From positions 35,849 to 99,848 of IMG/VR virus record IMGVR_UViG_2974730439_000001: a DNA stretch of 64,000 nucleotides; one strand, given 5' to 3'. The notes below the pieces were generated by a model. That model was not told the origin of the DNA and ran no database searches. It saw only the letters and a program-made list of their open reading frames with translations. Positions 4,880 to 38,100 of this stretch are shown one piece after another (position 1 is the stretch's first letter; each line of letters begins with the position of its first letter). Both the position numbers and the translations under genes were made by a program. The stretch comes from a virus. Taxonomy: Duplodnaviria; Caudoviricetes.

Positions 4880-5281
4880 AACCAAACCTTCTTTCTGTTT
4901 TAAATGAACATTAGAGTCTAGTATACTCAGTCTGTGAAGATAGAGTATACGTCCTCAGAAAATGACAAGCATGTGGGGCATAGTAAATACTATAATGGCA
5001 GATTGAATTAGTAAGGCATACGTATGCATATGTAGAACAAACCATTTGATTAAATGTATTTATGATTGTGCGAGACGTTAAAATCATGTACTCCAATAAG
5101 ATTTAGTTTGACAGCTATTTCTGCTTATGAGTTAAAACTATAGTGAGAGTCATAGCGTAAGTAACGATTGTAGTCGTTTATCTTTGTCTTATAACAAATG
5201 CTATAAACTAAGAGTTGGCACTAACTTAATTAAATCCTGAGTGTCCAGGCGTCATTATTAATCAATTTAAACGTTTAAATT

Positions 5282-6489: not shown

Positions 6490-6707
6490 CCCTAAACAAG
6501 TTAGTATGGTGCAGTCAACCCAAAACTACTATTATCAACCAGATCCCTAATGGAAGCTTAGTAACAACTAAGCTACTAAGCAAGAGTACAATGGACTATA
6601 CAACGGTCAACCAGTATCTAATATTGGTCTAAGATGAAGGAAAAGGGTTGCCTATGAATAAGAGATACGAATAAGTAGGATAGTAGTTTTTTAAAGAAAT
6701 TAAAGAA

Positions 6708-6980
6708 ATTGACTGTTAGGTCTATTGAATCATCGTAAGACTTCCGTTCGAGTCGGAAATGCTCCACTAAATTAAAACAAGGAAGTTATTAGGTTTCTTA
6801 GCCGTTAGGTTGCAAGTCCTATAAAAAAGAAACCCTTATCAATGGGGCATACAGGTTTTGATTGCGATAGTGAAGGTAGAATAGGTCAATAAGCAGATAA
6901 CTGGCAATACAAGTTATATTATGAACTATAGCCGTATTGCGGCGTAAGTTCAAACGGCTAAGCTAATGTCGTAGAAAGCT
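6708..6980 (+). ncRNA. ssrA: circularly permuted (two-piece) tmRNA
   Basis: 3'/acceptor piece 6708-6766 (GAC-TTCCG-TTCGAGT-CGGAA-ATGCTCC-A) lies upstream of the 5'/coding piece starting 6844 (GGGGCAT-ACAGGTTTTGA). Acceptor stem has G3:U. Helix 2a TTGCGAT/ATCGTAA. Resume ATAACT|GGC, tag GNTSYIMNYSRIAA* at 6903-6947. Outer ends are approximate. Confidence 0.88.
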
Positions 6981-7043
6981 GGAGCATATCAGGCTAGATC
7001 AGACGTAAGGGCTGTGAAGGGTTCGATTCCCTTCAATGCTACA
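6981..7043 (+). ncRNA. truncated tRNA-like element
   Basis: T-arm GAAGGG-TTCGATT-CCCTTC; imperfect acceptor GGAGCAT/ATGCTAC; no proper anticodon arm. Confidence 0.5.
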
Positions 7044-8758: not shown

Positions 8759-9307
8759 ATGAAAGAAGAAGAAAAGCTTCTTGTAGAGCAAGCTAGAGAT
8801 GGTTCCGAAAGAGCTTTTAGTACACTTTATAATACTTATAAAAAGACTGTTTGGTATACTGCTTTTAAAGTAGTAAACAACGCAGATGCAGCAGATGATA
8901 TAACATCCCAAGTATTTACTAAAGTATATTTAAAGCTTAAATCTTATACACATCACTTATCATTTGAGATGTGGTTAAAGACTATTACAGTTAATACTGC
9001 AATAGATTATATAAGAAGGAACAAAAAAGAGCAATTGAATAACTATATTGATGAAGAAGATTCTACAATTCAATTAAATGGATTAGAGCATAGTCCAGAA
9101 GATAATCTTATATTTCAGCAAAATATAAATATTGTTATGGATTGTATTCCTCGTCTTAAGAAGAAATATAGAGATTTAATTTATGCTCGGTTGGATGGAA
9201 AATCCTACCAACAAATTTCAGAAGAGCTTGCTATTCCAGAAGCGACTGTAAAGACGTGTTTGAATAAAGCAAGACAAAGACTGAGAGAGATGTTTAACAA
9301 ATATTAA
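8759..9307 (+). CDS. ECF-type RNA polymerase sigma-70 factor
   Basis: Region 2 (AADDITSQVFTKVY...FEMWLKTITVNTAIDYIRR) and region 4 HTH (SYQQISEELAIPEATVKTCLNKARQRLRE). Confidence 0.92.
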   Translation: MKEEEKLLVEQARDGSERAFSTLYNTYKKTVWYTAFKVVNNADAADDITSQVFTKVYLKLKSYTHHLSFEMWLKTITVNTAIDYIRRNKKEQLNNYIDEEDSTIQLNGLEHSPEDNLIFQQNINIVMDCIPRLKKKYRDLIYARLDGKSYQQISEELAIPEATVKTCLNKARQRLREMFNKY

Positions 9308-9323
9308 CCAATACTTACAAATT

Positions 9324-9689
9324 ATGGCAAATTCATTTGGTCTACTGTGTCTTGCAGTAGTAATTGGATTCATTGCTTCTATAGTAATGAAGGATGCCAA
9401 AGCTTTCGGCAAATTGATGGCCATCATGCTGATAAGCTTACTTGTAGGTGCAGGAGTAAAGGAGTTAGTAGACATTACTAATGATGATATTACTTCTGAG
9501 AAAACTGCAGTAGTTTCTACAGAATCTACTCCCATGCACAGTAGTATTTCTCCTTTTGTATTGGAGGATACTGTTGCTATTCCAGATTGTGCAAGTAAGG
9601 AAATAGTAGAGCGTGACAGTGTAGAAATTGAAGCAGAAGGAGTACCTACAAAACAGAGAGTGAAAAGTAGTTATATAGATGATTCATGA
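9324..9689 (+). CDS. two-TM membrane protein directly after the sigma factor
   Basis: Two hydrophobic helices followed by an acidic tail. Confidence 0.75.
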   Translation: MANSFGLLCLAVVIGFIASIVMKDAKAFGKLMAIMLISLLVGAGVKELVDITNDDITSEKTAVVSTESTPMHSSISPFVLEDTVAIPDCASKEIVERDSVEIEAEGVPTKQRVKSSYIDDS

Positions 9690-9771
9690 GAGTATATTAC
9701 TCTCAATATTATTTATATATATCTACAAGTATTTAATCTAATTTACGCGTAAGGAGCGCATCATTATCAAA

Positions 9772-11154
9772 ATGGCAAAGAATAATAAGAATGCAATTAA
9801 AACTGCAAAGAAACAAACTAAGACTGTAGAGGAAAAAGTAAAGACTCAAGCAGCAGAAGCTGCAGTTGAAGCGCCAAAAGCAGAAGAAACTAAGGTTGAA
9901 GAAACCAAAGTTGAAGAACCTACTCCTGCTCCTGTAGAAGAGAAAAAGGAAGAAATTGCTAGTCCAAATGGAGAAGTAATTAATCCAGAAGTAGTCGAAG
10001 AGGCCAAGGTTGAAAAGCCTAAACCTGCTACTCAGGTAGTAAATACGTCAAAAGCAACATCTTTAGGTGCTGCACTTTCTTCAGCTGGAGGTTCTACAGA
10101 CCGTATTGACAAGAATCATGCAATTGACCTTGCAAAGATGGTATATCAGGAGTATGTAAATAATCCAGATACTCCTAGTAGCATTCGACAGACTGCTAAA
10201 AAGCAGTTTGATGTAATGACTGGAGTTGCTTTGCTTCAGTATTTTACTCAGCTAGAAGAAGACTTCGAGAATCTAGGAGTGCGCATTAAACCACATATGC
10301 GTGAACAAGCAGAAAATGTTCTTACAAACTATCTTGGAGTTAAAGTAAAGACTACTGCCCAGGATGATGGTCAGTTATTGCTTCAATTTGAAGAAATTCC
10401 AACTGAGACTCGTAAGACTGTTGCACAGGACAATAAGGCTAAAGAAAAACCTATACCAGAACCAAGTCCTGAACTTCCTGAGAAAGAGAAACTAGAAGCA
10501 TTACGAACAATTTTCGCTCAAACTAATAAGGGTGGAATTGGAGGTAATCTCTTGAGTGGTATTGAATGGGCACGTAAAGCATTCTCATTCGCTGCTGAAG
10601 AGAAGAAGTCTGTTATCTTTGCAAATATCCTTCACAAGGGTACTGAAGCTACTATGATTAACTGCTTACGTGGTATGGTTAATGGTAAGATGGGAGCTGA
10701 ACATAGTATTCTTGGAGCTCATGCATTATTGAAAGCTTGGTGTCCTACATTAAGTGAACAAGAAGTTGCAGAACTAACTGCAGTACTTATGTCTGCTGCT
10801 TCTAAGAAGAAAGTTGACGATTGGAATGAGAAAGCCAGTCCATCACAAGGAAAGCCGACTTATGACGGAGAACTTACAGTAGTAAATCGCCAGATTTTAG
10901 CAGCAAATGCAGGAAACGTAATTGATGCTATCTTAAAGGGTAACATTGAGGACGTTGCTGTAAAGGTTCCAGACAGTCAGCTTGACATGATTGTTCATCC
11001 AAATTCTATCCGTAAAACGCTTATAGCAGCATATGGAGATTCTGAAAATATCCTAAAGGATAAACTAAAAGAACTTGTTCAGTATTATGCTAAACCTATT
11101 ATGCGTTTGTCTTCATATGTAGACAAGTCAGCATATGCTGAAGCTAAGAAGTAA
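9772..11154 (+). CDS. hypothetical protein with E/K/P/A-rich N-terminus
   Basis: 460-aa ORF. Confidence 0.85.
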   Translation: MAKNNKNAIKTAKKQTKTVEEKVKTQAAEAAVEAPKAEETKVEETKVEEPTPAPVEEKKEEIASPNGEVINPEVVEEAKVEKPKPATQVVNTSKATSLGAALSSAGGSTDRIDKNHAIDLAKMVYQEYVNNPDTPSSIRQTAKKQFDVMTGVALLQYFTQLEEDFENLGVRIKPHMREQAENVLTNYLGVKVKTTAQDDGQLLLQFEEIPTETRKTVAQDNKAKEKPIPEPSPELPEKEKLEALRTIFAQTNKGGIGGNLLSGIEWARKAFSFAAEEKKSVIFANILHKGTEATMINCLRGMVNGKMGAEHSILGAHALLKAWCPTLSEQEVAELTAVLMSAASKKKVDDWNEKASPSQGKPTYDGELTVVNRQILAANAGNVIDAILKGNIEDVAVKVPDSQLDMIVHPNSIRKTLIAAYGDSENILKDKLKELVQYYAKPIMRLSSYVDKSAYAEAKK

Positions 11155-11159
11155 TCAAT

Positions 11160-11543
11160 ATGAAGCGTTTTAATATGTTAGTCACACTAGTAATGGTGTG
11201 CCTAGGAGGGTTTATAGGATTTGATCCTAATTCTCCGTCTCAAACTGCAAACGCTGAAGAAACTCGAATTCGTTGGGTAGACGTACCTAAAATGCCAGTA
11301 GACGTACTAGGCTTGAATGAAGAGAAATCTATCAACATTGACTTGCAGGAAAAGACTGTATTATTTAATGGAGACGTTGATAATACCACTGTGACAATTA
11401 AAACGGACGTTGAGACACGTCCAGAGTATATAACTAAGGTAGTAGAAAAGGTAGTATATCTGCCTGAAGATATTGCCTATAGAAGTAAATTTTTTAACCG
11501 TTTAAAACCGATTAATAAAGAACTACCAGTGAAGAATTGGTAA
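11160..11543 (+). CDS. hypothetical exported or membrane-anchored protein
   Basis: Signal-peptide-like N-terminus. Confidence 0.8.
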   Translation: MKRFNMLVTLVMVCLGGFIGFDPNSPSQTANAEETRIRWVDVPKMPVDVLGLNEEKSINIDLQEKTVLFNGDVDNTTVTIKTDVETRPEYITKVVEKVVYLPEDIAYRSKFFNRLKPINKELPVKNW

Positions 11544-13720
11544 CTGCCGAAGAGAAACGCAGACCGCTACTAGAACTATACAAGCGGTATATAAGAGCTA
11601 TAAGTATAAATATTCATTATTTGAGCCTAACTAAGCCGTGTAATGTGAGTAATACAGGATACTGAAATGTATTAAATAAAAGCTAACACTTTTATTTATA
11701 CTATAGTATGATAACTTGTTGTGTTATAAAATTACTCTATAACTGAAGAAGCAACAGGAAAATGGGAGAGCGTGCATAACCCATAAGCGAGAACCGTACT
11801 GGTGGCTAAAAGACGCAGGTGTGGAAGGAGCAGCTATCGCATCTAAACAAAGCAAGGGGTATCGTTTACCTCTATACACATTCGTTGACCAATATCACTG
11901 GTGAAATCACGAAGGAATGTGAACACGTGCTGTTTATACGTTGTCATCTTAACTGAGAATCGACTAGCATTCTAGGGTGTCTCCAAAACCCCCTTGGCCC
12001 ACTACTTAAGTGTGTACGAGCCTAAAGAATATTGCCTTAGTGTTCTATATTATATCTAAAGATCTTCTGTTGTATAGAAGTGTAAAATTCAATTGGGAAT
12101 CGGGAAAATCGATGGCAAGATTAGTACTTGGATATGGTATATATGAAGGAGGAGGATAATATAATAATGAGCAGAAATTAATTAAGACATGGCTGAGTGG
12201 CTATGATCCGTATAATATCTTTTTGTATGAGAGTTATATGACAGATTAACCAGATTGGGTGCAAAACCCTTACGCAATACAGTGAACGTTAGAGTTAGCT
12301 GTTTGGGAGAAATCCCTATGGAAAGTAAATTGCGTGTCTTACAGCTTAAGAGATTTCATAATATAGTTGCAATTACTATAGTGTTTAGAAATAAGCATAA
12401 TGAGGTTTAGGTTATTATATTATAAAGTGACTTGTTAGTAATGTCACTATAAAGCTTAGTGTGCTTTGCACCGAGTAATAAACTAACTAGCGCTTGAAGT
12501 CCGCGAAAAGACTATTAGTGGTTGAATATATGATCAATATAAGTATATTCATGGGAAACAAAGGAAGGTGGAACTGAGCCCACCCATAAAACTCAGACAA
12601 AGTAAGTGAGGTATCTTTAACCAAGATTCGCTAGAAATAATTAGGTAAGAGCTATGCACTCCAGCATAGAGCAGGATCTTACAATGCGTCTTAAGAGGCC
12701 GACACGAAGTAGAATGGAAGTAATCTACGTATTGCCTTGGTTAGTTAATGTTATATAAGATGTTATGTACTTTAGTAAGTCTAATCAATGAGTGCCTACG
12801 CTGAAACGAACAGCTAAAACAAATAAGGAGAGTGTAAACATGTTTAATTTTTAAAACAATAGGGAAGTTCAATGGTAGTACCTTGACAAAGTATGAGCCA
12901 CCCCGCTATTGAAGTAACTTGCTACATGAAATTCTGTAAACTAATGTGCGCAACACATTAGCTAAGGAGATCGCTGAGACGGCTGGTACGCTTCTCATTA
13001 GAGTGTACTAAAACGTTTGTTGAATGGTTGGAAATACCATGAGTAGAAAATAGTAACCTGAGATTTATCGCAATGTCAGAAGTGAAATGTCCAAAAGTGG
13101 GTGCTGCGAAACATCAGCAGCTTTTGTATTAGTAGTTTTAGTAACGTTTCTCAACAGAAACGACCCTCATTCGCCAAGTCTATTTTTAAGATAAGAATGT
13201 TGTAATAGCTTATATGCCCGTAGATAGTATCGTACTATTGATGATGGAGCTCTCTACATCTTTGCATCAAATCGCGTTGTAGAGTACGGCAAACAAAGGG
13301 AAACGGTAGGTGTTACGAGTCCCCTTTAAGTATAATCTCGAAACCCAAAATTGCCAATATTAACAGATATTAGCAGAAAATATTATATTTTAGAGGAGTA
13401 GGAATAAATAAGTGAAGAACGGCTGACTTATCTGTCTAATAAGTAAAGTCCTACGGGGAATGCCGAGTAGTGAAATATCACTACGTTCTAGTAATGAGTT
13501 TTATTATACTTTGACTTATTTTACAGTATTAACAAATTTTATCAGAATTTTAACTAACGTTGTATTACCATATGCATCATTGAGATTGATTAACCTCATT
13601 CAAAGCTTTTTAAAGCGTATCCTTTAGGTACAGGATAAGGTTAGAATAAAAGGTAATACATTAATTTTTAATTTTATTTATTAACTGATTAATTTCTCGT
13701 TAAAGAAATCAATCTTAAAA
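11544..13720. ncRNA. 2.2-kb ORF-free, hairpin-rich block (candidate large structured RNA or RNA cluster)
   Basis: No ORF-track entry; many inverted repeats (see findings). Confidence 0.5.
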
Positions 13721-13739
13721 TCAAAAAGGAGAAATAAAT

Positions 13740-14306
13740 ATGAACGAAATGAATGCAGTGATCAATCCTGAATTGATCGGTAAAAACAGAGCTATTCTTG
13801 AATCTTGGAACTTAATTGGTAAAAAGATTTTCGTTGTTCGGCGGGAGCCAGCAGATCTTATGTTCAATGACCGTAAACGGGACGGCGATCCAACTTTGAC
13901 AATGAAACCAATCATGAAGTACATTATTGAAGGTACTAATATCTTCGGTGTGCGGTTAGTTCCACTTCCTGATAAGACTACTCTTGTAGTGGAGTTAAAC
14001 AACAATCCAACTCTGCAGTTTAAGATTGGACCTGCTAAATTCCGTGAAGTTACTATGGAAACTATCACAGAAGCAGTAGAAAACAATGAGAAGAATTCTT
14101 CTCTTGGACGGGAACCGATTTTGTTTGATGATTTGATCTCTCTTACTGAGCAGGTTAACAAGTTGAATGCTCTGGAGAAAGCAAAAGCTGAGGCTATTGC
14201 AGAAGATATGCTTAACCAGGCTAAGTTGTTAAGCGACCTTAATGACATTCATTTGACGGAGTGTGATAAGTATTATACTGAACTTGGCACTCCTATTACG
14301 AAATAA
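13740..14306 (+). CDS. hypothetical protein
   Basis: 188-aa ORF. Confidence 0.85.
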   Translation: MNEMNAVINPELIGKNRAILESWNLIGKKIFVVRREPADLMFNDRKRDGDPTLTMKPIMKYIIEGTNIFGVRLVPLPDKTTLVVELNNNPTLQFKIGPAKFREVTMETITEAVENNEKNSSLGREPILFDDLISLTEQVNKLNALEKAKAEAIAEDMLNQAKLLSDLNDIHLTECDKYYTELGTPITK

Positions 14307-35172: not shown

Positions 35173-38100
35173 TTACTTACATTCTTCTTTACGTTTTTTA
35201 CCATTTTTTTTCAGATTATTCACAGTACCTTCATTTATTTCAGTGATATCGTCAATAGGAGTTTCTACACTATCTATGATTTCTGTTATGAGTTCAGTAA
35301 CATCAATAGCCTCAGGTTCTGGAGTTAAATCTTCAAATTCTATTCCACTGTCAGTTTCCATCCCATCTAAATCTGATAATAATGTATCATCTATATGATT
35401 TATATTATCTACTTCAGATGGATCTGAAGAACTATCAACAAATTCCTCAGGAGATATAGTTTCTGATGATGCTATTTCCTACTCCTAAGTGCTGCTATCC
35501 TATATTTCCTAATCAGTATAGTTATCTGTTTGATCTAATTCTATAGAAGCTTTTTCTTCTATATTATCGTAATTAGAATAATCTACAGAGTGATAACTAT
35601 CATCTTTCACAAATACAATGGGGTCTTTTCCTCTTAATAACTGAACTCGCTTATCTATTAAATTAAATACATTATTTATCTAATCTAACATTTTATCAGT
35701 GAAATTATTAGTATCAAATGCTGATGGTTGATCACCTTCTTTATACAACTCATATATTGAGTTAGAACCAGCATCATATCCCAATTTAGGTACTACTGTA
35801 TATATTCTTTCAATGGTCTTTCCAGTATCAAGATTCACTATATCCCCTATTCTTTGGTATACGTCAATATTATTACCTGTACCTACTATTTTGAAGAATT
35901 TATAGTTTTTAGATATATCATAATCTCCTCTCACACTTATAACAGTGTTAACGTTTACTCTAGTTTTACTAGTAGCTGATGCTAAATTAACTACATTAGA
36001 TACTCGTTCTCCACCTTCATCATCACGTCTAACTCTTCTAACAAATACAGGTACTATGTCATTATCTCTCCAATAGTTTCTTACAAGATTCAAATATATA
36101 GAGTCTACCCAATCTGACGTATTATTACTATTTACTACAGATGTATCTCCATAATTTAATTTGTTAATAGCGTCAGCAATAGATGATACATAACCTAATT
36201 TTCTCTTATATGACATAGGTACTAAATTAAAGAATGAATTAGGAGTTCTGTTATCGTAGCTAGTTAAAAATGAATATTTAACTAAAGTTTCGGCAAATTC
36301 TCTGATAGTATTATCTTCACTAGTAAGTAAGTCATAAAACGCGGATCTAAGTCTATCTTCATAATACCTAGAGTTATTCATAGTAGATGTAGACGTATTT
36401 ATATAACTTATATTCCTTTTATTGTTAGAGGTTACCGCTTGTAAATAGTTAAGTAGTTCGTTTGTAATATTTCCAGATTCATCTACAAAAGTTATTAGAT
36501 TAACATTATCCTTATTAACTCTAATATAATTTTTTATACTATTTAATCTACGAGCAATGCTATCTTTTCCAAACAGAATACTGTTTATATCACTATCAGT
36601 TAACATAAGATCAGTATTGTTGGCTGTTACTTTAGCTCTAATTATACTTTCTACTTTATTAGAAAGAGCTCCAACATATTCCTTATTACTAGTAGCTTTA
36701 TATTTAAATAATATAGATTTACCATTATTAGTAGGAGTATAGTTTCCACCTCTTATTTGCTGTAATATAGAAGTAAGTATTTCTTTATAACCATTCGTAG
36801 CTGCAAACACTTGTGATCTCAATATACTATTTGATAAATCCATAGCATATATTAACTTCTTATGTAAGAACGTATTTCCAAAGTAAACGTCTAGTCCATT
36901 TGTATCTACTGTATCAGTAAAGAATTTTTCTTTATTATCCTCTATAAATGTAGTATAAGAATTATAAAAGTTCTATAATTGAGATAAGTTATTACCATAC
37001 TTCTTAGTATCTATCTAAGATCTTTGAACTAAATCTGCCATAGTTTGAGCATCAGAAGCTAAATCTTGATATGCTTTAACAACTAATAGTTGTTGAACTA
37101 TATCTTGAGGAGTGATATCATTGCTTCTAAAAGATTCTAAACTACTAGCAAGCTTAGATTGATTAAACGCATCAATACTTCCATTCTACACTAGCTACTC
37201 AATCTGCTTTTTATAAGTATCTGATAAAGGGAATCTATTTAGCATATCCCAATATTTCTATTTTATATCAGAGAATATCTAGTTATCGTACTACTTACTA
37301 ACTCCGATTACTCCTTCATTCATAATCTTTCTGTTAGCGTACTCTTTTAACGCTGGCTGCGCTAAGAATAAGAATGTATTTCTACCTTTACCTGTTCTAA
37401 GTAAGAAACTAGCCATGTTATAAGTAACTTTATTAACATTCAACACGATTATATAAGGATCTTTAGCAACGTCTACGTGAGCGTTAATCATGGCAGATAA
37501 CCAATCAAGTATCTTATAACCATCCTATCCAGTTATTTCATCAAATTGATTTAAATTGTATTTACTAGCTCCTTCAGAGAATTTCATTCTAAGATGAGTG
37601 GCCTAAGTAAGGCAATGATTAGTAGAATTTAAAGCAAAAGGAGCAATACCGGCTTTACCAGACGTGTATTCTGTTTTTCTAGATTCCTAGAACGAAGGCA
37701 TAAGTTCGTACATAGGTTCAGCTTCTTTCAGTTCTGTAGTCTATACTAATGGTAATATTTCTTTTTTAAGGATACCAGTAAGAGTATCAATAGAAGCTCT
37801 AGTTTCTGCTAGCGTCTTCTTATCTGAGATTACTAAAGTATAACTATCTAATAACTTATTAATTAATGCGCCTTCTGTTTGTTCTACATATGATTTAGCG
37901 TTGTTATTCCAAGTATATCTTTCATTAGTTTCAGGATCATACGCATAAGTAGCTATGTACAATTTATCAATATCGAAGTCAGATCCAGTCATAGCTGTAA
38001 ACTCATCAGGTACTACTATAGTATCTCCAGTTTGAGCAGGTAATACGTCTGCTACTATAAACGAGAATGTTGATGACAAACCCTGAGTAGGGATACGATA

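Follow-up and report, generated by a model that had tools for sequence, protein, structure and literature searches.

A conserved non-coding block in Suoliviridae crAss-like phages as a proposed large structured-RNA locus

We analysed 64,000 nucleotides (nt) of phage DNA (Duplodnaviria; Caudoviricetes), namely positions 35,849 to 99,848 of the IMG/VR record IMGVR_UViG_2974730439_000001, and refer to this whole stretch as the window. The phage belonged to the Suoliviridae (delta crAss-like phages) of the human gut. At 11544-13739 of the window lay a block of about 2.2 kb that was best explained as a conserved, non-coding, plus-strand structured-RNA locus of the Suoliviridae, with its domains at about 11647-13346 and its transcript proposed to be the tail of the upstream operon. 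We considered this explanation quite probable. Comparison of related phages showed that the part at about 11647-13346 encodes a predicted RNA of about 1.7 kb composed of separately closed domains, namely a core, a 268-nt domain, a central island and about 25 further hairpins. Moreover, the substitution patterns showed that selection acts on plus-strand base pairing, pseudoknots and invariant single-stranded strings rather than on a protein or on the DNA duplex. A first-pass annotation, made from the letters of the window alone, had proposed a large RNA or RNA cluster of no known family at this place. The proposal was borne out, since the block was non-coding, kept its place and size in relatives, carried covarying strand-specific helices and matched no Rfam family.

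Non-coding status and conservation of the block

The longest open reading frame (ORF) in 11544-13739 had 55 amino acids (aa). The claim that no ORF of 60 aa or more was present held for this interval under code 11 as well as with TAG read as Q, TGA as W or TAA as Q. The three reassigned codes produced scattered, mostly minus-strand frames of up to about 125 aa, which did not tile the block. It had also been suspected that recoding of TAG would not rescue the region, and this was the case: reading TAG as Q opened the late genes at 29.6-64 kb but not the block. Fourteen ORFs of 30-55 aa were located inside the block, and none of the 14 was intact in all five other near clades because of stops, frameshifts or loss of the start. 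An explanation by small ORFs, which the first-pass annotation had named among the dangers to its proposal, as it had missing covariation, was thus not supported, since every small ORF was broken in relatives. Pairwise comparisons revealed no codon periodicity of substitutions in the block (p = 0.33-0.88), whereas in the same comparisons both flanking genes showed phase bias, with p from 0.035 down to 1e-12. Models of the group I and group II intron families did not match at E <= 10, and the flanking genes were complete and separate in all lineages.

Some existing annotations did place genes here. Two RefSeq features were concerned in the interval 2653-3324 of L001/L002, which correspond to cr125_1 and cr114_1. 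A coding sequence (CDS) of 468 nt at the 5' edge overran by about 90 nt into the block, in comparison to the upstream ORF in the sister IMG/VR loci L019-L028, which has 378 nt. A 162-nt 'hypothetical protein' annotated inside the homologous block was probably a false gene call over RNA.

Full-length matches of the block were found in the crAss-like phages cr125_1 and cr114_1 (Suoliviridae, Aurodevirus) at 79% identity, and an unannotated faecal phage was 98.9% identical to it. In RefSeq/GenBank, cr125_1, cr114_1, cr6_1 and cr1_1, which represent three Suoliviridae subfamilies, had an unannotated gap of 2.1-2.5 kb located 3' of genes homologous to those for 460 and ~127 aa, and 5' of a ~180-aa gene. 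The same ORF-free gap was present in 31 IMG/VR loci. Scans of viral and metagenome contigs with patterns of the core motif yielded about 285 loci, which fell into 18 clusters at 95% identity. All 15 lineages that were covered in full had a gap of 1980-2473 nt without ORFs between the same two small genes, and the core motif lay 150-370 nt from the upstream gene. Pairwise identity among the lineages was 47-84%. The mismatch to clade B was 20% of nucleotides in the block versus 29% and 39% in the flanking genes, and there were islands of 77-85% nucleotide identity where the neighbouring protein was only 27% identical.

Among 185,579 prokaryote species genomes (one genome per species), the core motif occurred in four contigs, L286-L289, of which three were short (3.6-7.8 kb) and one had 100,654 bp and belonged to a Bacilli metagenome-assembled genome (MAG). 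The four were filed under Thauera sp., an uncultured Clostridium MAG, a Bacilli MAG and an uncultured bacterium. It was most likely that they represented mis-binned or contaminating crAss-like phage DNA, and the block appeared to be phage-specific.

The block had been described as GC-richer than ordinary spacers. Accordingly, the GC content of 11544-13340 was 0.371, in comparison to 0.314 in plus-strand coding DNA and 0.19-0.33 in spacers without RNA genes. The remaining GC-rich spacers of the window contained a transfer RNA (tRNA), the transfer-messenger RNA (tmRNA) or a RAGATH-9 RNA, and in this respect the block was similar to spacers with known RNA genes.

The first-pass annotation had called for a comparison with Rfam. 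Searches with cmscan and Rfam 15 covered the window at gathering score and, with lax filters and a limit of E <= 10, the interval 11300-13900; they gave no accepted family in the block. In particular, the GOLLD and ROOL models did not match the block at E <= 10, and the models of RNase P, signal recognition particle (SRP), 6S, tmRNA and ribosomal RNA had no match in it. A hit to RT-16 at 12000-12145 (21.2 bits versus a gathering score of 50, E = 4.1) was rejected; there was no adjacent RT gene. The near-misses to SNORD104 and MIR7723 (E = 1-8, far below gathering scores) were ascribed to chance. The crAss-like literature that we consulted, including the Crassvirales review (PMC10136315), Yutin et al. 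2021 (PMC7886860) and a 2026 preprint on an amber-recoded genus, did not mention the block. With no Rfam family and no describing paper found, this large multi-domain RNA locus seemed to be previously undescribed.

Covariation of base pairs along the block

The 5' core was evaluated in a MAFFT alignment of 18 lineage representatives, which was unbiased in the sense that it was fitted to no structure. Five of its helices, including the H1/H3 pseudoknot, were paired in 95.1% of cells versus 82.2% after shuffling. Double-sided changes were present at 21 of the 27 pairs and amounted to 75 cells, in comparison to 20.5±3.9 in shuffled alignments and at most 10 with a slid partner. The outer pairs of H4 were excluded from this count because of ambiguous gap placement. 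Three other parts were realigned with Infernal models. Model R1 (H6-H9) matched 97 of 100 loci, each time on the strand of the genes, and its alignment of 30 distinct sequences was 90.4% paired versus 69.5%, with 154 double-change cells versus 48.6. Model R2 (the central island) matched 77 of 100 loci on the gene strand and was 91.9% paired versus 78.7% in shuffles (78 double-change cells versus 28.0±3.2). Model R3 (the tRNA-like subdomain) had a syntenic match on the gene strand in 54 of 60 loci; pairing reached 94.2% versus 85.4%, and 22 of 42 pairs contributed 117 double-change cells versus 35.1±4.3. At E < 0.01, R3 had no match in L164, L214, L229 and L242. Each of the four tests exceeded 500 of 500 shuffles as well as every slid control. 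The Infernal realignment replaced a column-diagonal helix search on global alignments of 15 and 19 lineages, which was noisy with regard to long-range helices of 4 bp and missed misaligned hairpins.

A consensus structure of the whole block, calculated with RNAalifold from 24 near-clade sequences, contained 302 pairs. Double changes were found at 125 of them, giving 667 cells versus 196±13 in shuffled alignments. The forward strand folded at -205 kcal/mol and the reverse complement at -143, and many conserved G-U pairs were readable on the plus strand only. The consensus energy per 100 columns was -12.4 to -12.9 kcal in the block versus -1.5 and -3.7 in the coding DNA on its two sides, taken from the same genomes, and there were 5.9-6.0 versus 0.9-2.0 covarying pairs per 100 columns. 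Thus, the block exceeded its coding flanks 3-8 times in consensus energy per column and 3-6 times in covarying pairs, although the flanks contained more substitutions. Related sequences can outdo column shuffles without any structure, but the slid-partner and coding-flank controls spoke against that here.

Similar results were obtained for an independent lineage, the cr6 group (19 sequences), for which alignment with the window was possible in the islands only. Its consensus energy was -10.3 versus -4.9 kcal per 100 columns, it had 6.0 versus 3.5 covarying pairs per 100 columns, and 38 helices of at least 4 bp with at least two covarying pairs were spread across 2150 nt. Two landmarks recurred in this group: a 13-bp helix with a span of 271 nt, which corresponded in its relative position to 12156-67/12412-23, and a 10-bp helix with a span of 97 at the same relative place as 13561-69/13652-60.

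Five stems picked out by eye in the first-pass annotation (a to e in Table 1) were all present where they had been drawn, and four of them covaried. Double-sided changes were found at 4 of 4 pairs of stem a (an AAAG/CUUU core), at 6 of 7 pairs of stem b and, in near clades, at 5 of 6 pairs of stem e. In stem c (outer TAAGA/UCUUA), 5 of 5 pairs covaried and 84% of cells were paired. Stem d was invariant in most near clades, and its support was qualitative, coming from a reading of the alignment; in L232/L285 its sequence differed while the AYUCCA loop was the same. Far from lacking covariation, the block therefore contained covarying plus-strand helices and pseudoknots. The 12156-12423 segment was also exceptional as a single sequence, with a minimum free energy of -67.3 kcal/mol (z = -4.30, 0 of 200 shuffles as stable) and a fold that recovered the comparative helices.

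Several candidate long-range pairings, which inverted repeats had suggested, were rejected or left open. The pairings of 11678-90 with 12291-303 and of 12240-46 with 13431-37 had one-sided uncompensated changes in clades B and C. The 7-bp pairing of 11848-54 with 12462-68 was invariant in near clades and broken in the cr6 clade. Finally, 11764-84 with 13097-166 clashed with the covarying local hairpin H4.

Domain map and neighbouring units

Table 1. Features of the block and RNA genes upstream of it, in window positions
Feature	Position	Strand	Remarks
Two hatchet ribozymes, RAGATH-9 RNA, tmRNA (ARAGORN)	2775-2898, 4951-5089, 6511-6690, 6677-7038	same as block	upstream of block
Spacer after 127-aa gene	11544-11646	+	poorly conserved outside near clades; small hairpin 11563-67/11584-88
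Domain 1, universal core	11647-11995	+	most conserved part of block
Domain 1, H1	11647-53/11731-37	+	pseudoknotted with H3
Domain 1, H2	11659-63/11705-09	+	
Domain 1, Ha	11679-82/11689-92	+	stem a
Domain 1, H3	11715-21/11752-58	+	pseudoknotted with H1
Domain 1, H4	11762-66/11780-84	+	
Domain 1, H6	11817-23/11838-44	+	
Domain 1, H7	11855-61/11867-73	+	
Domain 1, H8	11877-83/11915-21	+	stem b
Domain 1, H9	11888-91/11899-902	+	
Domain 1, hairpin	11975-80/11988-93	+	CUCCAAA loop
Variable linker	11996-12155	+	indel-rich between clades; hairpins 12000-02/12010-12, 12029-34/12038-43
Domain 2	12156-12423	+	closed by 12-bp helix 12156-67/12412-23; 11 of 12 pairs with double-sided changes
Domain 2, inner hairpins	12344-48/12392-96, 12362-67/12375-80	+	
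tRNA-like subdomain, inside Domain 2	12183-12341	+	outer helix 12183-87/12337-41 (stem c)
tRNA-like subdomain, three-part arm	12198-200/12250-52, 12204-08/12244-48, 12209-15/12234-40	+	
tRNA-like subdomain, T-loop-like hairpin	12257-60/12266-69	+	loop UGCAA A
tRNA-like subdomain, inner helix	12271-78/12329-36	+	encloses 12281-87/12294-300 and 12305-08/12313-16
Central pseudoknot island	12426-12513	+	hairpin 12426-31/12443-48; its loop 12434-38 pairs with 12483-87
Central island, hairpin	12455-58/12472-75 and 12461-64/12468-71	+	invariant GUGCUUUGCA
Central island, hairpin	12498-501/12510-13	+	
String of covarying hairpins	12514-13130	+	
H-type pseudoknot	12567-71/12580-84 with 12574-78/12592-96	+	
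Helix around stem d	12646-50/12677-81	+	stem d 12652-57/12664-69, ACUCCA loop
Hairpins	12696-99/12794-97; 12737-44/12781-88	+	
Hairpin	12941-48/12954-61	+	8 bp, 6 pairs with double change
Hairpins	12988-93/13001-06; 13024-28/13036-40; 13059-65/13072-78	+	
Terminator-like hairpin	13102-13119	+	followed by GCUUUUGU; site to 13127
Further hairpins	13131-13346	+	13145-49/13158-62, 13168-72/13195-99, 13216-20/13245-50, 13310-17/13339-46
Hairpin	13252-58/13278-84	+	7 bp, 4 double-change pairs
TAACA-type pentamer array	13355-13385	+	~10-nt spacing; absent in L054/L155 clade
Optional ~95-nt structured element	13405-13495	+	helix CGG(C)/(G)CCG, invariant GUAAAGUCCUACGGGGAAU
~95-nt element, hairpins	13426-31/13439-44, 13467-73/13478-84	+	covary; the second is stem e
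Second TAACA-type array	13524-13555	+	duplicated in L029/L030 clade
5' leader of 188-aa gene	13561-13739	+	9-bp helix 13561-69/13652-60, 6 of 9 pairs double-sided; small hairpins within

The invariant strings of Domain 1 included AGCGUG, AACCC, GAGAACCG and AAUCA; three such strings were ascertained, because they were part of the search pattern. Within this domain, CACAUUC (11877-11883) and AUUCU (11969-11973) were both complementary to GGAAUG(UG) at 11914-11921, and both covaried with it. The two pairings may be alternatives that exclude each other and would thus form a switch. Along the block, hairpins recurred whose loops read (A/C)UCCA(A) (at 11981-11987 and 12658-12663), with extra copies in L164, L214, L269, L282, L003 and L004. 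Purine-rich GGAGG strings, such as the one at 12145-12155, could be partners of these loops. In the central island, the pseudoknot pairing was kept with differing sequences (GUUAG/CUAAC, GUCAG/CUGAC, GUCAC/GUGAC and CCCACA/UGUGGG). The terminator-like stem differed compensatorily between clades as well, with UGCUG/CAGCA versus CGUCU/AGACG in our reading of the alignment, and this hairpin may be an internal 3' end. It was the only lead (on the plus strand at 13102) retained from a scan for sigma-70-type promoters and terminators, which is ill-suited to a phage of Bacteroidota.

The first-pass annotation had noticed a D-arm-like and a T-loop-like piece inside its long-range stem (12183-12341). 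These pieces belonged to a real, conserved and covarying domain, but this domain was not a tRNA: neither ARAGORN nor the Rfam tRNA model made a call at 12183-12341, though both found the three tRNAs of the window, which were located in the same arm as the block. The subdomain resembled tRNA-like structures in having an acceptor-like closing helix, a GG-containing arm (UGGCUGAGUGG) and a UGCAA hairpin with the T-loop pattern. These motifs were conserved in 54 of 60 loci and their helices covaried, and the subdomain is a candidate mimic of the tRNA elbow. On the other hand, there were no anticodon arm and no CCA, and the T-like hairpin was followed by about 65 nt with two extra hairpins before the 3' strand of the closing helix was reached. 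Structures of tRNA-like form that serve in processing or mimicry are known, for example, from the 3' ends of some long non-coding RNAs and plant-virus RNAs.

The last ~400 nt were better read as separate units, namely promoter-like arrays, an optional small-RNA cassette of ~95 nt and a structured gene leader. The two TAACA-type arrays were linked by the direct repeat D4, which connected 13355-85 with 13524-47. Similar arrays were located upstream of the genes at 9295, 18871, 21018 and 24790, and none was found inside 11544-13340. These arrays look like phage promoters or operators, and the one at 13524-13555 probably serves the 188-aa gene in this way. They may also be recombination points, because the cassette between them was swapped in a close relative: in L011/L018, otherwise 92% identical to the window, the ~95-nt element was replaced by unrelated sequence. 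The element was 77-88% identical between lineages with ~54% identity overall, and it was missing in L232/L285, L224, L225, L269, the cr1 clade and L229. It behaved like a mobile small-RNA cassette. The leader at 13561-13660 may be a cis-regulatory RNA.

Upstream of the block was a rightward operon (genes at 9324-11543), in which the 127-aa gene directly preceded the block. The downstream gene encoded 188 aa and started with the ATG at 13740, preceded by AAGGAG. The 460-aa neighbour belonged to no Pfam or PHROG family, its AlphaFold model had a mean predicted local distance difference test (pLDDT) score of 63, and Foldseek against the PDB gave nothing below E = 0.15. With neither a family nor a fold match, this protein was dropped as a clue to function.

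Genes from position 1 to 29.6 kb were on the plus strand and used the standard code. The minus-strand late genes at 29633-63579 were open with TAG read as Q only, and had frames of 4493 and 1845 aa. The other RNA genes of the phage (tRNAs, tmRNA, hatchet and RAGATH-9) were all located in the rightward standard-code region. These hatchet ribozymes, RAGATH-9, two-piece tmRNA and tRNAs were similar to the block in being structured RNAs on the same arm and strand, among early/middle genes with the standard code. This grouping suggested a shared RNA-processing environment. They differed in their size of 70-360 nt and in belonging to described families; they lay outside the block, and none was matched within it.

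Possible forms of the RNA and alternative explanations

The 1.7-kb part would most likely be transcribed together with the rightward operon starting near 9295, as a long tail of its transcript. We infer transcription from upstream, as this part had no promoter-like array of its own. Cleavage may then turn the tail into stable pieces, and the tRNA-like domain is a candidate processing signal for RNase P/RNase Z. Our guess is that the folded RNA would act in trans in the early to middle part of the infection. It could be a scaffold or a decoy that engages a protein of the host or the phage, perhaps the conserved neighbours, or it could be a catalytic RNA.

Public sequencing runs were compatible with expression of the block, and this was a weak indication rather than a proof. 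Of the sampled words of the block, 63-76% were contained in ten runs whose records state RNA; these came from at least five studies, labelled chicken gut, mouse gut, an unnamed organism and 'gut'. The share was similar (0.75) in runs of 'kind unknown' (X15-X20). Most of the block was contained in small metatranscriptome runs with the labels chicken gut and mouse gut. CrAss-like phages have been reported from chicken viromes (PMC11475920), consistent with the chicken-gut runs.

A number of points weighed against a structured-RNA locus as formulated above. The support from RNA runs was word content, and RNA libraries can carry phage DNA. The alignments of R1-R3 were fitted to their models, a caveat on three of the four covariation tests, and the RNAalifold structures of the 24 near-clade sequences and of the cr6 group were optimised on the data on which they were scored. 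Alignment between distant lineages was limited to the core, the tRNA-like domain and the central island. Folded as single sequences, 11640-11995 was no better than its shuffles (z = -0.3), and 12424-13346 had z = +1.3, with its minus strand at z = -1.2. The first-pass description of the block as densely base-paired was therefore right with regard to covarying helices, which ran along the block, and called for qualification with regard to stability, which was exceptional in 12156-12423 only. For this reason, the case for structure rested on covariation rather than on stability. Moreover, no helix spanning more than ~320 nt had solid covariation, so that nothing tied the whole block into one fold. 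Finally, the function, processing and protein partners of the RNA were pure inference.

Within the structured-RNA explanation, it was possible, at somewhat less than an even chance, that the locus gives a single stable RNA of ~1.7 kb, and the remainder would be a processed transcript or a multi-gene set. In favour of one RNA were the missing inner promoter-like arrays (11544-13340), the abutting domains, and a length and landmark spacing that were kept beyond sequence similarity. The principal alternative was a cluster of independent small or medium RNA genes of ~100-350 nt, each with its own start and stop, instead of one giant RNA. Such a cluster would agree with the local closure of the domains, whose supported helices spanned up to ~320 nt, and with the modular conservation of the block, in which 13405-13495 was gained, lost and swapped alone between promoter-like arrays. 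The terminator-like hairpin at 13102-13127, with compensatory stems and a U-tract, and the tRNA-like domain, which was undetected in L164, L214 and L229/L242, could be read in the same way. However, TAACA arrays were absent throughout 11544-13340, and the domains abutted nearly without a spacer, as at 12423/12426. Independent genes also had no need to keep a total length of 1980-2473 nt together with the order and spacing of landmark helices where the sequence itself was unalignable. We regarded this cluster as a serious contender that falls well short of being the expected outcome.

It was rather unlikely that 11647-13346 is kept as one RNA working as its own machine, be it a new ribozyme class or a particle, made of RNA only or of RNA and protein, that resembles the GOLLD/ROOL cages, with the tRNA-like domain engaging translation or tRNA processing of the host. 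Published GOLLD and ROOL RNAs are ~0.6-0.8 kb long, whereas the locus described here was ~2-4 times longer (about 1.7-2.2 kb) and confined to one crAss-like family. In addition, oligomeric particles and a unit fold are features of GOLLD and ROOL, and in the block no long-range closing helix was found. The likeness consisted of large size, multiple domains, pseudoknots, carriage by phages, proximity to tRNA genes and detection by comparative analysis only (PMC5737381, PMC12286853).

The block might also be an untranslated RNA acting in cis only, as a long 3' untranslated region (UTR) of the 9324-11543 operon and/or a 5' leader of the 188-aa gene, by which these mRNAs would be controlled in their stability or translation. 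Its location on the same strand between two genes, without a promoter-like array of its own before 13355, and the resemblance of 13561-13660 to a structured leader would fit such a role. But with its pseudoknots, its tRNA-like fold and its invariant single strands, the 1.7-kb part far exceeded what known phage UTR elements need, and the downstream gene was separated by a promoter-like array, with a terminator-like hairpin at 13102-27. We therefore found a purely cis-acting role improbable.

Still less support was left for a function as DNA, that is, a replication origin, packaging site or large transcription-control region working through cruciforms, single-stranded DNA structures or protein sites, and we held it to be very improbable. 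Pairing was preserved by G-U wobbles of one strand, the pseudoknots covaried and the forward consensus folded far better than the reverse complement. The GC skew was positive throughout 8 to 18 kb with no turning point at the block, and 11647-13340 had neither iterons nor an AT-rich unwinding element and exceeded the genome's coding average in GC. What spoke for DNA was a large non-coding region in a phage with an unmapped origin, 22 sigma-70-like promoter matches versus 11.7±3.3 expected, and the TAACA-type arrays at 13355-85 and 13524-55, but such arrays were limited to the last 400 nt and also stood before ordinary genes.

That the block is coding after all, through small proteins, an unusual code, introns or a decayed gene, was hardly credible: the recoded TAG of the late genes, the small ORFs and the introns known from delta crAss-like phages (PMC10136315) were outweighed by the lack of a long frame in any code tried, of a conserved small ORF, of codon periodicity and of an intron match, and the block was not decaying, because it was more conserved than the neighbouring genes.

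Thus, a conserved structured-RNA locus remained our explanation of choice. Annotation pipelines currently put 'hypothetical protein' calls into the homologous region, as with the 162-nt and 468-nt CDS of cr125_1 and cr114_1. For this family, natural variants are now available by the hundreds, along with a domain map and three working covariance models, and its covariation is clear; the RNA is therefore directly testable. Large structured RNAs are rare, and the known ones are unusual machines, such as ribosomes, RNase P, group II introns and the GOLLD/ROOL cages. If the ~1.7-kb part is indeed made and kept as one RNA, it would be by far the largest structured phage RNA known that is neither ribosomal nor an intron. 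As a machine of its own, it would engage the translation or tRNA-processing apparatus of the host through its tRNA-like domain, in phages of a family with a reassigned TAG stop codon.

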